Shown here piece after piece: positions 30,009-46,884 of a stretch of DNA of 50,949 nucleotides. This DNA is from an uncultured Planctomyces sp. Lineage in GTDB: Bacteria > Planctomycetota > Planctomycetia > Planctomycetales > Planctomycetaceae. The notes under the pieces are model-generated. The model had not been told where the DNA came from, did no database searches, and saw only the letters and a program-made list of their open reading frames with translations. The stretch spans positions 1-50,949 of the forward strand of contig CAZILR010000001.1 in the NCBI GenBank assembly GCA_964539995.1. Reading direction: 5' to 3'. Each line of letters begins with the position of its first letter. The first letter of the stretch is position 1. Both the position numbers and the translations under genes were made by a program.

Positions 30009-30989
30009 TCAGTATTTGCCGGTACGGTTGAGCCGTTCAATCTGTGCGAGCCGAGTTTCGATGGGCGGATGCGTGCGAAAGTGGTCGGCCAGATGTTTCA
30101 TCACTGTTCGTCGTTTGGTGGATGAATCCGACGTGGTCGCCGGACAATTCCGCTGAAGCATTTGCAGGCCGAGCGCCGCCTGATCGTGAGATCGCCCTTG
30201 TCGCCGCATCTGGGAGTAGCTCCAGCGGTCGGAAGCGAGTTCGTGTTCTTCCGAGTAGCCGACGGAAATGGCTCGATACGCCATCGCGGCCAGTCCTCCG
30301 ACGAGTTCACCTGCTGTTTGTTCGGCTCGGACAGCGGCGGTCATGCCTTGCACGCAATGCCGCAAATCGCAATGCGCGATCTCGTGACCGAGCACAAATC
30401 GCAACTCGTCATCATCGCGCACGACGTTCAACAGGCCGGTGTGAACGTAGACGTAGCCCCCCAAGTGCGCAAACGCATTGATGTTGTCGTCTTGAATCAC
30501 GGAGAAGTGGTACTCAATCTCCTTCCGCTTGCGAGCGTCCAAGAACGGTTGCACGAGTCGCTGGATGCGGCTCAACAACTCCGGCGCGTCTTTCAGCTTC
30601 TGCTTGTCGCGGATCATGGCATGCACGGATTTGCCAATTTGCTGCTCTTCGCGCGGAGTCAGGCCAGCCACTTGATCGAAGATTTCATTGCCGGCTTGCG
30701 TGACGTCGTGGCCGATATCGAAGGCGAGATCGACCAGAGTTCCGCGATGGTCCTGTTTTGGTGAGGACGTTGGCCGACGCGTCGGTGGGGAACCGGTCTC
30801 GGTCTTGGCCGCGTGACCGATCGGAGGATCGGACGGATTGGAATTCGAGGGGTGAGCATGTCCTGTTTTGGTTCGATCGAAGAGAGTCGCGCCGGCCCGC
30901 CGATGGACGATCGAGGCGACCGCCAGCAGGATGACCACGGTACAGACGACTTGAAATGCTCCGAACTTCACCGGCGGCGCACTCGACAT
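30009..30989 (-). CDS. Membrane-anchored M48-family zinc metalloprotease
   Basis: ATG 30989 is preceded by AGGAG. The N-terminal TM helix is FGAFQVVCTVVILLAVASIV. HEIAH lies at 30372-30386. NAFAHLGGYVYVHTGLL precedes the motif and the downstream EHELASD is a third-ligand-like segment. Confidence 0.9.
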   Translation of the reverse strand: MSSAPPVKFGAFQVVCTVVILLAVASIVHRRAGATLFDRTKTGHAHPSNSNPSDPPIGHAAKTETGSPPTRRPTSSPKQDHRGTLVDLAFDIGHDVTQAGNEIFDQVAGLTPREEQQIGKSVHAMIRDKQKLKDAPELLSRIQRLVQPFLDARKRKEIEYHFSVIQDDNINAFAHLGGYVYVHTGLLNVVRDDDELRFVLGHEIAHCDLRHCVQGMTAAVRAEQTAGELVGGLAAMAYRAISVGYSEEHELASDRWSYSQMRRQGRSHDQAALGLQMLQRNCPATTSDSSTKRRTVMKHLADHFRTHPPIETRLAQIERLNRTGKY

Positions 30990-31000
30990 GACAATTCTCC

Positions 31001-31948
31001 TCAGGATTCGTTGGCGGCCACGCGCCGCAGGGTCTCTTGAAATTCCAATCGTCGTTCGATCTGGCGGATTTCTTCCGGGGTGAATCGCGACCAATCGGGG
31101 TACGAATTCCGGCCGTCGTTTCTGCGTAGTTTGGGATGCAACATTTCCAAATTGGCAGGCGAAGTTCTCGCGATGGACCGGCTCTCTGCAACGATGTCTC
31201 GGTCGCGGTCCTCCCACACAACGTCGTTCTCTTCAGCCTGTATCCGCTTGAGAATCTCGCGACACGTTTCGGTATTCGCTCTGCCATCGGTGGGCCACGA
31301 GAATATGAGTTTGCCGTCGCTGTCCAAAAGATGTAGTTCATCCACGAAGCGAGAGTGTTCCAGCAGTTCCAGCGCATCGAGCAGCCATATGCACTTGTCG
31401 TCATGTTCGTCGCGAGAGACTCGCAAGACGAACCGTTCCGAATGCAGTGGATCCATTCTCCGGCAAACGCGGCTCCAACTTTGTGCCGGCGGAACGCAGG
31501 GGATCAGTACCACGACATGGTAGCCTCGGTCATGCAGATAGGTGACCAGAGTCTCGGACATCTCTGACGTGTCGAAGGTGCAAACTAGGACGAGGTGCCG
31601 ACGTGACTCGACAGCCTTCTCAACCAATCGGCCGGCAAGCTGAGCCGCCGATCCACGCAACGATTTTCCGGCCAAGTCGGCATCGTCCGGAGTCGCGACG
31701 GTGTAGCCAGGGTGCAACAACAGCAGCTCGGTCGGGTCGATCGTGACACAACCGCCATGTTCTCGCAGGCCGCGTCGCGCCGCTTCGGCCAGCACGGACT
31801 TTCCGGCTCCCGGCTGACCAGCCACCAAGATGGCTTGTGGTGCCGGCTGCGGTCGGCTGCCAGACAGGAAACGATCCAACGCCAACAGTTGCCACGCCTG
31901 TTCCAATTGTTGTTCGAGTTGTTCTGAGGATGGCTCATCGCGATTCAT
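31001..31948 (-). CDS. Zeta-toxin-like P-loop kinase with extra C-terminal domain
   Basis: AILVAGQPGAGKSVLAEAA (P-loop decoded near 31795-31830) is followed by VTIDPTELLLLHPGY. This matches the zeta/PezT pattern of a GxPGxGKS loop followed by D.D.fr..hP.y. Confidence 0.8.
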   Translation of the reverse strand: MNRDEPSSEQLEQQLEQAWQLLALDRFLSGSRPQPAPQAILVAGQPGAGKSVLAEAARRGLREHGGCVTIDPTELLLLHPGYTVATPDDADLAGKSLRGSAAQLAGRLVEKAVESRRHLVLVCTFDTSEMSETLVTYLHDRGYHVVVLIPCVPPAQSWSRVCRRMDPLHSERFVLRVSRDEHDDKCIWLLDALELLEHSRFVDELHLLDSDGKLIFSWPTDGRANTETCREILKRIQAEENDVVWEDRDRDIVAESRSIARTSPANLEMLHPKLRRNDGRNSYPDWSRFTPEEIRQIERRLEFQETLRRVAANES

Positions 31949-44905: not shown

Positions 44906-44970
44906 GATCAGTCTCCTTTTGGTGTGATCAAACAATCGCACGCAATGTTCATGAACAGCACGGCTTCGAA

Positions 44971-46884
44971 TTAGCCGCCAGCTTCCAGTCGCTTCGCTTC
45001 ACGGAGGTCTCTGTTTTCTTCCGTCGTATTTCCCAGACGCTGGTTCACGATGGCACGATTGCGAAAGTGACGCGGTTCACGCGGCTGCAATCGAATGGCC
45101 TCGGTCGAATCCTGGAGGGCTTCCGAAAATCGGTCGAGCCGCAGATAGGCCGCTCCACGTCCCGTGAGCCAACCAGCGACGTCGCCGTCTGGCATCGTTG
45201 TCCGTTGTTCCAAGGCGGCGGAGTAATCGCGGATCGCCCTCTCGAAATCTTTGAGCGCGATGTAAGCCAACGCTCGGTACGCTTGGTGACGCGGATTCTG
45301 CGCATCGCGTTTGATGGCCTCGTCAAAATCGGCGCGTGCCAAGTCAGAGGCCCCCAACGCCAACTGAGCCTGTCCACGTTCCGAATAAAAGTCGGCCTGC
45401 GGATCGCGTGTGATTGCCTGTGTGAACTGCTCAATCGCCGCCGCGAACTCCCCCTGAGCTGACAGGGCTGCTCCGCGCTTCGCGTAGAAATCAGGACGGT
45501 TCTCGTCCAGCTTCAGGGCTTGATTCAATTCCTGGAGGGCACCGCTTGGTTCACCATCGGCAAGATATGTTTCGGCGTTTCGTTGGTGCTGATCCGCCAC
45601 GGGTGGTTGTGGCGGGATAGGGGGAATGTGGCCACGCGACTCAAACCACAGCGCGACCGCCATCAAAACAATCGCGGCACTGCCCAGCAGCATATTTCGG
45701 CTGAGAAATCGTCGATCGCGCGGACGCGTGTTTCGAGACCAACCACCCCGAATCGGCTCGGCGTTCGCGCCGAAAGCATCTTCCAAGTCTGCAACGAAAT
45801 CACCGCACGTCTCCTGCCGATCCGCCGGATTGACGGACAGGGCTTTGCTGAGAACGACGGACACCGCAACCGGAATCGCGCTGTTGATGGCATGTACTGG
45901 AGTCACGGGCTGAGTGAGCTGTGCCAATCGAAGCTGCTCAGGAGTTTCGCCCTTGAACGGGGGTTGGCCCGTCAGAAACAGATAGACCACTCCCGCTAAG
46001 GCATACAAATCGACGCGGCTGTCAATCGGTTTCCCCGTGCCGACTTCCGGAGCCATGTAGCCCGGAGTTCCGACACACACTCCGTTTTGGGTGAGTCCAG
46101 AGTCCACCGTCGCCGTCCGTTCCTCATCGACGGCGCGAACGATTCCGAAGTCGCCGAGGTAGGGCGTGCCGTGCTCGTCGAAAAGAATGTTTTCTGGCTT
46201 GATGTCGCGATGGATGAAATCGCGAGAATGCACATAACTGACCGCTTGAGCGATCGGCCGCAGCCAGGCCAACAAGTTCTTCACCGTTCGCGGTGCCACA
46301 TTGAGCGGGCATTGCAAGAACTTTTCCCCCAAGTGCCCGCCCGACAAGTTCTGCAAGACGACAAAGGGGATCCCTTCGTGACTGCCGGTGTCGAGCACAC
46401 GACAGACGTGCGGATGTTCGAGTTCGATCATCGCCGTGAACTCACGCTCAAAGCGTTCGCACAATCCCGGAACGGATAGCAGCCGCTGAAGCGGAGCCTT
46501 GATGGCGACATGCGCGCCGTTGCGGTTTCGGTCGGCAGCCAAAAAGACCTTCCCCATGCCACCTCGGCCGAGCAACTCGAGGACTTCATATCGGCCGTCG
46601 TTCCCCAGCTTCTGACCAATCCATTGCCTCTCCTGTTCTGGAGGAGTCCGCTTAAGTCCATCATGGCTGCATGGCGGCAGGAGTTTCCGGTTGATTTTGT
46701 CACTTTGGCTCTCTGGGACGATTTTCGGAGACCCGCCGTTGAACAATGGTATTACGGGCATTTCAGGGAGCAGCGTGTTCTCCTGTTCGAGCCGTCGCTG
46801 AAAGGAAACCTCACCGGCAAGCTCGCACGAGTGAGACGTCTTGCTTTGAGTGGGTCGGAGATGGGGATCGCTGATTTGGCTCAT
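44971..46884 (-). CDS. Membrane Ser/Thr protein kinase with C-terminal TPR repeats
   Basis: GRGGMGKVF, VAIKAP, HRDIKPENILF, DFGIVR, APEV. The TM helix is MLLGSAAIVLMAVALWF. There are 5-6 TPR-like units (e.g. FYAKRGAALSAQGEFAAAIEQFTQAITRDPQ). The likely start is ATG 46884 (GGAGA upstream); the ORF track extends to 47013. Confidence 0.9.
   Translation of the reverse strand: MSQISDPHLRPTQSKTSHSCELAGEVSFQRRLEQENTLLPEMPVIPLFNGGSPKIVPESQSDKINRKLLPPCSHDGLKRTPPEQERQWIGQKLGNDGRYEVLELLGRGGMGKVFLAADRNRNGAHVAIKAPLQRLLSVPGLCERFEREFTAMIELEHPHVCRVLDTGSHEGIPFVVLQNLSGGHLGEKFLQCPLNVAPRTVKNLLAWLRPIAQAVSYVHSRDFIHRDIKPENILFDEHGTPYLGDFGIVRAVDEERTATVDSGLTQNGVCVGTPGYMAPEVGTGKPIDSRVDLYALAGVVYLFLTGQPPFKGETPEQLRLAQLTQPVTPVHAINSAIPVAVSVVLSKALSVNPADRQETCGDFVADLEDAFGANAEPIRGGWSRNTRPRDRRFLSRNMLLGSAAIVLMAVALWFESRGHIPPIPPQPPVADQHQRNAETYLADGEPSGALQELNQALKLDENRPDFYAKRGAALSAQGEFAAAIEQFTQAITRDPQADFYSERGQAQLALGASDLARADFDEAIKRDAQNPRHQAYRALAYIALKDFERAIRDYSAALEQRTTMPDGDVAGWLTGRGAAYLRLDRFSEALQDSTEAIRLQPREPRHFRNRAIVNQRLGNTTEENRDLREAKRLEAGG

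Follow-up and report, generated by a model that had tools for sequence, protein, structure and literature searches.

We analysed a 50,949-nucleotide (nt) stretch of DNA from an uncultured Planctomyces sp. (assembly GCA_964539995.1, contig CAZILR010000001.1, positions 1 to 50,949 of the forward strand), to which we refer, in its whole length, as the window, and found that it holds one copy of a widespread and apparently undescribed envelope system. The core of this system comprises a bitopic membrane protein, two microproteins, a membrane-anchored AAA+ protein with degenerate motifs, an intact AAA+ protein and an ATPase that resembles the type IV coupling proteins (T4CPs). Judged from gene content only, there is about an even chance that the system is a kinase-regulated toxin export machine driven by the T4CP-like ATPase and an unfoldase.

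An earlier annotation of the window (hereafter the original prediction) had proposed one system of sixteen consecutive minus-strand open reading frames (ORFs). All sixteen were present, from 30009 to 47013. Its domain claims were upheld by profile search (Pkinase with TPR, Peptidase_C14, one weak and one strong AAA_2, TrwB_AAD_bind, Zeta_toxin and Peptidase_M48), and hydropathy analysis agreed with the membrane helices and signal-like N-termini that it had listed. The idea of a sixteen-gene system, on the other hand, stood only in part: a conserved core does exist, but only about 7 of the 16 genes belong to the universal core. The caspases, the M48 protease, the zeta kinase and the protein kinase are accessories, recurrent but lineage-variable.

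A core conserved across bacterial phyla

The core genes, together with a 99-amino-acid (aa) protein encoded among them, are listed below in transcription order.

38363..39070, minus strand: bitopic protein (core component 1), with a Pro-rich N-terminus and one membrane helix; a collinear homologue is found in about 45 loci, including those of the proteobacterial variant
38250..38354, minus strand: microprotein A (core), 34 aa, with the motif MWxNxxxLWxxxxxFR followed by a membrane helix
37925..38224, minus strand: 99-aa anchored protein, with a WN..FR and helix start like that of microprotein A and a C-terminal extension
36670..37875, minus strand: membrane-anchored pseudo-AAA+ (core), 401 aa, ClpB-D2 type; AAA_2, E 1.3e-7
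35632..36657, minus strand: active soluble AAA+ (core), 341 aa, single ring; AAA_2, E 5.8e-38
33693..35642, minus strand: T4CP (VirD4/TrwB)-like ATPase (core); TrwB_AAD_bind, E 2.5e-12
33560..33676, minus strand: microprotein B (core), 38 aa, with one membrane helix and the C-terminus YYYWMRP

A one-genome-per-species scan with the ATPase gave 55 loci, and single-protein look-ups added eight more; they are referred to here by L numbers. Synteny was examined by tblastn of the window proteins against these loci, on which ORFs were called with a simple GC3-weighted heuristic that is crude in GC-rich DNA. In about 32 loci, the beta-sandwich bitopic protein, a tiny ORF, the membrane pseudo-AAA+, the active AAA+ and the ATPase were found in one fixed order on one strand, and the conserved core closes with microprotein B directly after the T4CP-like ATPase. 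Loci of this main type were identified in Planctomycetota, Acidobacteriota (Bryobacterales), Binatota, Gemmatimonadota, Desulfobacterota (Magnetomorum), Chromatiales and Verrucomicrobiota.

A variant core, likewise constant in order and strand, occurs in about 18 alpha- and gammaproteobacterial loci, where it is ordered as a bitopic homologue, a weak AAA, a CbbX/EccA-type AAA (AAA_lid_6), a 617-aa uncharacterised protein and the ATPase. This set is adjoined by a divergently transcribed CsgG-like gene and two partner genes. With the variant included, the core spans at least 7 bacterial phyla. The variant loci L033-L046 (for example L042, 3014-13851) have an ADP-ribosyl-cyclase toxin downstream, and the variant also occurs in cultured strains, namely Roseobacter sp. 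S98, Neorhizobium sp. LjRoot104 and Seohaeicola saemankumensis DP4N-5.

Of the roughly 60 loci compared, many show the core co-localised in other genomes, and with dozens of loci from several phyla sharing its order, chance is far from sufficient to account for the arrangement. Identity to close relatives was highest in the motors (92-98%), followed by the membrane parts and caspases (82-88%) and the candidate cargo (60-79%). The annotated loci were surrounded by housekeeping genes rather than by defence islands or mobile elements. No relative of the T4CP-like ATPase was detected in viral contigs, and its family is nearly absent from plasmids, with one weak match (29% identity) among 72,556.

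The motor proteins

The ATPase family consists of proteins of about 645 aa that are found in many phyla, with invariant Walker A (GxxGSGKT) and Walker B (CDEF) motifs, and its members also match T4SS-DNA_transf and TraG-D_C. The N-terminal domain, of about 170 aa, holds four membrane helices. The AlphaFold2 model (predicted local distance difference test, pLDDT, 88) showed a single T4CP-type domain with TrwB (target TM-score 0.72, E 4e-13), Cag-beta and DotL as its best fold matches, while VirB4, the DndH C-domain and HerA scored much lower; SIR2-HerA, DUF4297-HerA and the DndH C-domain were among the matches with E between 1e-6 and 1e-3. The assignment as a VirD4/TraG-like ATPase was therefore kept by both profile and fold searches, with TrwB as the closest likeness.

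The absence of T4SS gene families was assessed by profile scans of the window ORFs and from precomputed Pfam tables of eight loci (L001, L002, L004 and L061-L065). No VirB4, relaxase or VirB6/8/9/10 was reported in either set, which agrees with the original view that the cluster is not a type IV secretion system (T4SS) or an integrative and conjugative element (ICE). As no T4SS genes were found in any examined locus, the ATPase is T4CP-like in fold and not a T4SS component.

The active AAA+ protein, originally described as an intact Clp-D2-type enzyme, proved to be a ClpB/ClpC-D2 module with intact motifs. Its best matches in PDB were the D2 rings of ClpC and ClpB (E 1e-46 to 1e-43), with its GFVG aligned to the GYVG pore loop of ClpC, and its residues 31-299 align to ClpB positions 558-824, which is the D2 module alone. 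Walker A, the DE of Walker B and the pore loop G[YF]VG are conserved in its homologues (n=28), and in close relatives the protein is 94-96% identical.

Its neighbour, which matches the D2 region of ClpB, ClpV and ClpA (NCBIfam) and has two N-terminal membrane helices, had been called a degenerate membrane-anchored AAA+. The degeneration extends across the family: in 30 homologues, Walker B has hhhhEN or a similar sequence in place of DE, Walker A carries Arg or Lys where Thr would stand, and a deletion removes the pore loop. Thus, the 401-aa partner is a conserved pseudo-ATPase and, given its two N-terminal helices, it is probably the membrane tether of the active subunit.

The bitopic protein and the microproteins

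The C-terminal domain of the bitopic protein is a conserved beta-sandwich (residues 116-234 of the AlphaFold2 model, pLDDT 72.6) with the aligned motifs EDGD and DGGGGIT. A fold search against PDB returned generic Ig-like and beta-sandwich matches, none with E<=1e-3. The protein belongs to no Pfam family, and a search of a large protein library (E<=1e-3) found 926 clusters at 50% identity. In two loci of Gemmatimonadota type (L061, 6584-7174, and L063, 6463-7227), an extra PA14-domain protein is encoded just upstream of the bitopic protein.

An ORF with the motif of microprotein A was detected at the equivalent position in about 20 loci from several phyla, and it was called as a 34-aa gene in L001 and L065. 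The 99-aa anchored protein is, by its similar start, a paralogue of microprotein A; it has homologues in L001, L006, L007 and L065 and extended forms in L010 and L019. For microprotein B, the pattern [YF]xWMxP replaced an earlier, overly strict regular expression. An ORF of 35-45 aa with one membrane helix and this end was identified directly after the ATPase in 49 of 57 loci, while the same end occurs in 0.9% of all small ORFs of the same DNA.

Genes downstream of the ATPase encode candidate toxins with basic tails

The genes that follow microprotein B vary from locus to locus and encode unrelated toxin domains in proteins with no Sec signals. In the window these are the following.

32430..33476, minus strand: candidate cargo 1, 348 aa, with a charged N-terminal coil, an Ntox4 domain (E 2.3e-9) and a disordered basic C-terminal tail
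32170..32397, minus strand: 75-aa Lys-rich ORF that aligns with the tail fused to Ntox4 in L007 and with the tail of the 348-aa protein
31945..32160, minus strand: 71-aa helical protein, the stop of which overlaps the start of the zeta-like kinase by 4 nt (ATGA)
31001..31948, minus strand: candidate cargo 2, a zeta-toxin-like P-loop kinase that ends in a conserved basic helix (RRxxxQxxLRR); Zeta_toxin, E 1.9e-26

The 348-aa protein had been described as a coiled-coil protein with a globular core and a basic disordered tail. The coil and the tail were retained, and the core can now be named as an Ntox4 toxin domain. The protein has no signal peptide, and it is 67-79% identical between relatives in which the ATPase is 92-98% identical. 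Its tail is homologous to the cargo tails of L001, L006 and L007; a search for its relatives returned only four close homologues, so that the tail module is not widely traceable in this way. PMC3482391 counts Ntox4 among the toxin domains of secreted (PVC-type) toxins. The 75-aa Lys-rich ORF appears to be the cargo tail module on its own, as an orphan or duplicate.

Zeta-like genes downstream of the ATPase were detected in the window and in 13 other loci, in Planctomycetota and Proteobacteria, and their products share a basic helix, RRxxxQxxLRxRA, at the extreme C-terminus. This motif is family-specific and was seen only in the context of this system. The overlap between the zeta-like kinase and the 71-aa protein is conserved in L001 and L065; the 71-aa protein matches no Pfam or antitoxin family and is a candidate antitoxin, immunity protein or adaptor.

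Among the other loci, Ntox4 was found in L007, L064 and L065 as well as in the window, Ntox46-like domains in L001, L024 and L062 (three independent weak matches), an HNH domain in a downstream ORF of L052, Gln_amidase in a 1755-aa protein of L002, and ADP-ribosyl cyclase (NADase) in proteobacterial loci, which also encode peptidoglycan (PG)-binding giants. Several further downstream proteins appear by eye to carry nuclease motifs of PD-(D/E)xK-like or DxGH-like form, with no profile match.

Many downstream proteins end in long Pro/Ser/Gln/Lys-rich tails, with final residues such as RSK, KSK, KKK, QKK, RSR or RAR. We counted a tail as carrying the signature when it was disordered and its last five residues included two or more Lys/Arg; downstream ORFs were those starting within 4 kb. 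The signature was present in 32 of 109 downstream ORFs and in 55 of 648 other ORFs (odds ratio 4.5, p 2e-8), a statistic that depends on heuristic ORF calling, and a stricter charge test gave 10/43 against 18/673 (p 1e-6). Within the planctomycete subgroup, the tail of the cargo is homologous while the central toxin domain is swapped. The tail enrichment, the conserved tail on swapped toxins and the zeta motif together indicate that the toxins are tied to the machine and are not chance neighbours.

Accessory genes

The remaining genes of the cluster, and a transporter gene convergent with it, are as follows.

44971..46884, minus strand: receptor-type Ser/Thr kinase with a kinase domain (Pkinase, E 1.1e-38), one membrane helix and TPR (many TPR families)
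42719..44941, minus strand: caspase-fold protein 1, with a signal/anchor helix and a large C-terminal extension; NCBIfam caspase_w_EACC1, E 3.8e-11, below the model cutoff
41286..42722, minus strand: caspase-fold protein 2; BLASTP against caspase 3, E 2e-15 over the whole domain
39218..41242, minus strand: caspase-fold protein 3, with a signal peptide and a weak SH3_3 match; Peptidase_C14, E 1.3e-13
30009..30989, minus strand: membrane-anchored M48 zinc protease; Peptidase_M48, E 1.5e-25
27595..29997, plus strand: FHA-FHA-ABC transporter (ABC-2 type), convergent with the cluster; FHA, ABC_tran and ABC2_membrane

The ORF of the kinase could begin as far upstream as 47013. Ser/Thr kinases are embedded among the system genes in many loci (for example L016, L021, L022, L024, L026, L061 and L063).

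In caspase 1, the His/Cys dyad is visible in the sequence, and orthologues were found in L001, L006 and L065; a sequence search against PDB gave nothing meaningful. The start of caspase 2 overlaps the stop of caspase 1 by 4 nt (ATGA), and orthologues are present in L001 and L065. The middle caspase had been described as catalytically dead, and its alignment to caspase 3 bears this out, with the catalytic His replaced by Tyr and the Cys by Ala. Caspase 3 has its His-Cys dyad, and its start at Met35 is supported by a 674-aa call in L065. C14 genes also adjoin the distant systems of L062 and L063, and caspase-type genes are found in planctomycete loci.

Genes for M48 proteases lie near the system in at least 8 loci (L001, L004, L007, L021, L022, L025, L062 and L065), and in L004 a PP2C-M48 fusion is encoded beside the machine. 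The Acidobacteria have an S8 subtilase with a C-terminal membrane anchor. In L016, L023 and L030 (for example L023, 8729-10687), the anchored subtilase directly follows the ATPase. The acidobacterial S8 gene is preceded by that of a conserved, roughly 110-aa protein that has a single membrane helix, an architecture that recalls the type VII mycosin.

At least 20 loci encode a homologue of the FHA-ABC transporter no more than 10 kb from the system. It ranks among the genes most consistently linked to the core, although its position and orientation vary; the cargo genes are separated from the AAA+ genes by it in L026 and L027. Although it falls outside the region delimited by the original prediction, the transporter is probably part of the system.

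CsgG-like outer-membrane lipoproteins were identified in L016, L017, L023, L030, L052, L061, L063 and proteobacterial loci, with matches of 1.5e-23 in L023, 3.3e-11 in L016 and 6.6e-8 in L042; the hosts are Acidobacteria, Gemmatimonadota and the bearers of the proteobacterial variant. Together with the periplasmic beta-sandwich, the signal-peptide caspases and the C-terminally anchored S8 proteases, these lipoproteins make up a set of envelope-facing partners.

Gene models and flanking regions

With the start codons chosen in the original prediction, the spacers between the sixteen ORFs were reproduced as originally given, namely 65, -4, 43, 147, 8, 25, 49, 12, -11, 16, 83, 32, 9, -4 and 11 nt. 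Independent gene calls on L065, a metagenomic contig from a close relative, gave the same sixteen gene models, including the 34-aa and 38-aa peptides, with call lengths of 736, 478, 674, 235, 34, 100, 401, 341, 648, 38, 350, 82, 71, 315 and 328 aa. A promoter and terminator scan of the cluster was uninformative on transcription units, as the counts were at or below those of shuffled sequence, and an Rfam scan of the window found no RNA family.

Between the start of the kinase gene and an upstream BNR gene, a C-terminal transposase fragment was detected at 46928-47392 on the plus strand (Mu-transpos_C_2, E 3.3e-12). It is compatible with the IS21 remnant that had been claimed just upstream of the cluster.

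On the other side, the minus strand of the window encodes, at 6310-16920, a 3536-aa giant with S8 subtilase, RTX/HemolysinCabind, FG-GAP, cadherin and Ig-like domains. In L001, the FHA-ABC gene is directly followed by that of a comparable giant (4676 aa), and the giant S8/RTX protein may belong to the wider neighbourhood of the system. Between the giant and the FHA-ABC gene, a run of plus-strand genes (17107-27517) encodes an ECF sigma factor, a 1065-aa Ser/Thr kinase with TPR, a PPC/FG-GAP/M10 peptidase, a DUF4852 protein and a barrel that resembles TonB-dependent receptors and has no Plug match. ECF sigma factors and TonB-type barrels were also seen at the edges of L061 and L063. In L065, the closest full-length relative, a CHAT-domain protein (16531-17916, minus strand, E 1.9e-47) is encoded just beyond the FHA-ABC gene; since the window has different genes at this position, the edge of the shared module lies there. 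A 1941-aa ORF at 316-6141 (plus strand) gave only weak WD40 and beta-propeller matches.

A putative export machine and its alternatives

How such a machine could work may be sketched as follows. The toxins would be made in the cytoplasm, where the zeta-like kinase is probably restrained by its 71-aa partner. The T4CP-like hexamer would recognise the basic C-terminal tail, by analogy with type IV secretion substrates; those of VirB/D4 systems carry basic, disordered C-terminal tails. The active AAA+ ring, tethered by its pseudo-ATPase paralogue, would thread and unfold the cargo by means of its aromatic pore loops, and the unfolded chain would cross the inner membrane through a channel to which the ATPase hexamer contributes 24 helices and which also includes the two microproteins and the bitopic protein. 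Periplasmic proteases would then trim the tail or mature the machine, these being Arg/Lys-specific caspase-type enzymes in the window and mycosin-like S8 enzymes in Acidobacteria. Metacaspase- and orthocaspase-type enzymes cleave after Arg or Lys, and thus caspase-type enzymes would suit basic tails. Passage through the outer membrane would use the CsgG-like channel in those lineages that encode one; as CsgG passes unfolded chains, it would suit cargo delivered by an unfoldase. Finally, the receptor Ser/Thr kinase, together with the FHA domains that the ABC transporter carries, would gate the activity by threonine phosphorylation, in a manner comparable to PpkA/Fha in type VI secretion (T6SS).

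The original prediction had, as its first hypothesis, an ATPase that recruits basic-tailed effectors and an AAA+ pair that unfolds them. This idea gained support from the tail enrichment and the toxin domains found after the ATPase, and also from the AAA+ pair itself, in which the pore loop is kept in the active member and the partner is a pseudo-ATPase family-wide. In its full form, the proposal is that of a new type of secretion system, in which a T4CP-like hexamer and a tethered ClpB-D2 unfoldase export basic-tailed toxins, periplasmic proteases process them, a CsgG-like channel releases them in many lineages and Ser/Thr phosphorylation read by FHA-ABC regulates the process; we consider the chance of this full form to fall a little short of even.

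Several observations weigh against export. The tail signature was present in only about 30% of the ORFs just downstream of the ATPase, as called by a crude procedure. Clear immunity genes are not evident beside the nuclease-like cargo, with the 71-aa zeta partner as the sole candidate. The role of the ABC-2 transporter is not explained by the export model, and neither the window nor its close planctomycete relatives yielded an outer-membrane component. Some large downstream proteins of the proteobacterial variant have ordinary signal peptides and thus are not cargo of this route.

The same parts could instead serve a membrane-bound abortive-infection or defence system, the second hypothesis of the original prediction, in which the ATPase senses or pumps foreign DNA, the AAA+ pair holds, unfolds or releases toxins that kill or arrest the infected cell, and the kinase and FHA domains act as a gate. 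Defence modules are known in which ATPases of FtsK/HerA type are combined with NADase or nuclease effectors, so that the pairing of such an ATPase with an NADase speaks for defence and against export, as does SIR2-HerA among the weaker fold matches of the ATPase. The AAA+ scores with the PADLOC models PDC-M37B (2.4e-27) and DolB (5.4e-17) and the ATPase weakly with mad8 (1.5e-6); moreover, effector swapping and fast effector evolution typify defence systems too, and obvious immunity genes are scarce. Nevertheless, no PADLOC system was complete, and the kinase and AAA+ matches are generic. The best fold matches of the ATPase are secretion coupling proteins and not HerA, and the beta-sandwich, the signal-peptide caspases, S8, the CsgG-like lipoproteins and the PG-binding proteins would be needless for an intracellular suicide module. 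The annotated loci lie amid housekeeping genes, viral contigs lack the ATPase family, and Ntox4, Ntox46-like, Gln_amidase and ADP-ribosyl cyclase are domains catalogued for secreted polymorphic toxins in PMC3482391. On these grounds, defence is disfavoured relative to export, and we regard it as unlikely.

Another role, in envelope biogenesis or quality control, would have the machine insert, extract or export structural proteins of the surface or periplasm, or handle a lipid or glycan together with the ABC-2 transporter, with the toxin genes as mere passengers. It would make sense of the ABC-2 type FHA transporter as a recurrent partner, as ABC-2 transporters usually move lipids or glycans, and of M48, since proteases of this family are often envelope quality-control enzymes. 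The giant S8/RTX/cadherin surface proteins by the transporter in the window and L001, and the PG-binding giants with signal peptides that follow the ATPase in some proteobacterial loci, would also fit. Passenger toxins, however, are hard to reconcile with a tail signature enriched specifically right after the ATPase, a tail module kept on swapped toxin domains and a C-terminal motif of the zeta-like kinases that is specific to this context, and this role appears quite unlikely. A decayed T4SS or ICE, of which only the coupling protein survives, is very improbable and was rejected on synteny and gene content. The genuine T4CP fold and the transposase fragment just upstream speak for such a remnant, but the T4SS families named above were not reported in the window ORFs or in the eight loci with Pfam tables, the same non-T4SS partners recur across phyla with strongly conserved motors, and the ATPase family is next to absent from plasmids. 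Likewise, it is hardly credible that unrelated head-to-tail operons lie on one strand by chance: the larger gaps of 147 and 83 nt could hold promoters, but dozens of loci from at least 7 phyla retain the order of the core, and kinase, FHA-ABC, M48, caspase and zeta kinase genes recur around the core in shuffled positions. Chance adjacency was rejected as contradicted by this synteny.

If the system does export toxins, it would add a secretion system to the short list of those of diderm bacteria, as a new combination of old parts: a coupling protein with no T4SS, a Clp unfoldase of one ring that a pseudo-ATPase tethers, and two universally conserved microproteins. It would be widespread in poorly studied environmental diderm phyla, including Verrucomicrobiota, Gemmatimonadota and some Proteobacteria, and would explain how nuclease, NADase and zeta-kinase toxins are deployed in Planctomycetes and Acidobacteria, which to our knowledge lack most classical toxin-delivery systems. 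If it is a defence system instead, a membrane-embedded immunity system built of a T4CP and an unfoldase would also be new. The disordered tail with its basic end is a directly testable candidate export signal, the presence of the proteobacterial variant in cultured strains makes experiments feasible, and unannotated families, such as the beta-sandwich protein with its 926 clusters, gain a context.

Comparison with known systems

In PADLOC, with which 10 of 17 proteins were scanned, no system had all its components matched, and the calls for PD-T4-6, PDC-M37B and DolB were rejected as generic kinase or AAA+ matches with no partner components. Targeted reading of PMC12065111 (Menshen), PMC3239186, PMC3482391, PMC7159879 and the Lipocone preprint turned up no system composed like the cluster. 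PADLOC, NCBIfam and the full-text literature (open-access papers and preprints) gave no such composition, as the original prediction had supposed for described systems in general; the core proved to be co-localised in other genomes, and the key ATPases were not reassigned to housekeeping families. Since no named system of this composition was found in these sources, we rate it as new, while its function is one that we infer.

The T4SS coupling subcomplex (VirD4/TrwB; DotL-DotM-DotN-IcmSW) shares with it a membrane ATPase of the FtsK/HerA superfamily with nucleotide-binding and all-alpha domains, and the candidate substrates here likewise have basic disordered C-terminal tails. However, the ATPase has four N-terminal helices instead of the usual two, two ClpB-D2-type AAA+ proteins and two microproteins accompany it as obligate partners, no genes for VirB4, VirB6/8/9/10, a pilus or a relaxase were found, and the family is chromosomal. 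The type VII secretion system (T7SS; EccC, EccA and MycP) follows a comparable design, in which an FtsK-like ATPase of the membrane is joined by an accessory AAA+ and by a periplasmic protease with a membrane anchor. The CbbX/EccA-like AAA+ of the variant, with its AAA_lid_6, and the C-terminal anchor of the acidobacterial S8, as in mycosin, add to this likeness, as do the FHA domains in regulation, which recall EssC. On the other hand, the ATPase has one T4CP-type domain where EccC/EssC have three, no EccB, EccD or EccE and, among the small ORFs, no WXG (WXG100) family was reported, the hosts are diderm, and the candidate signal is a basic C-terminal tail and not YxxxD/E or LXG, so that the original exclusion of a T7SS holds. 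A T6SS had been excluded as well, and no TssB/C, Hcp or VgrG was reported in the scanned window ORFs or annotated loci. A Clp/Hsp100-type AAA+ is nevertheless linked in both to toxin delivery, putative here, and the machine is adjoined by genes for a receptor-type Ser/Thr kinase and an FHA protein, to which L004 adds a PP2C phosphatase, as in the T6SS with ClpV and PpkA-Fha1-PppA; the differences are the lack of baseplate genes and a single D2 ring with a pseudo-ATPase partner in place of the two-ring ClpV.

As in SIR2-HerA and DndFGH, to which the weaker fold matches point, an ATPase of the hexameric FtsK/HerA superfamily stands beside NADase or nuclease effectors, but the present system sits in the membrane, is accompanied by partners in the periplasm and outer membrane, has no SIR2 or Dnd genes, and carries several toxins per locus with a common tail signature. 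The Zeta_toxin gene and its small upstream ORF overlapping by 4 nt resemble zeta/epsilon (PezAT), except that the 71-aa partner matches no antitoxin family and the zeta protein has a clade-specific C-terminal basic helix. Polymorphic toxin systems also show catalogued toxin domains and cassette-like swapping on a conserved module; here, however, the conserved module is the C-terminal tail, and neither an N-terminal trafficking domain nor identifiable immunity genes were found. The active AAA+ shares the G-Y-V-G-type pore loop and the intact D2 Walker B with the ClpB/Hsp100 disaggregases and differs from them in lacking an N-domain, a D1 ring and an M-domain. With the curli (type VIII) system, the system shares genes for CsgG-family lipoproteins beside it in Acidobacteria, Gemmatimonadota and the proteobacterial variant; no curli subunits or CsgE/F families were detected, the window has no CsgG-like gene, and the CsgG homologues are putative channels. 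Taken together, and by analogy, the system resembles the T7SS in its design, the T4SS in its likely signal, the T6SS in its regulation and curli in a possible outer-membrane step.

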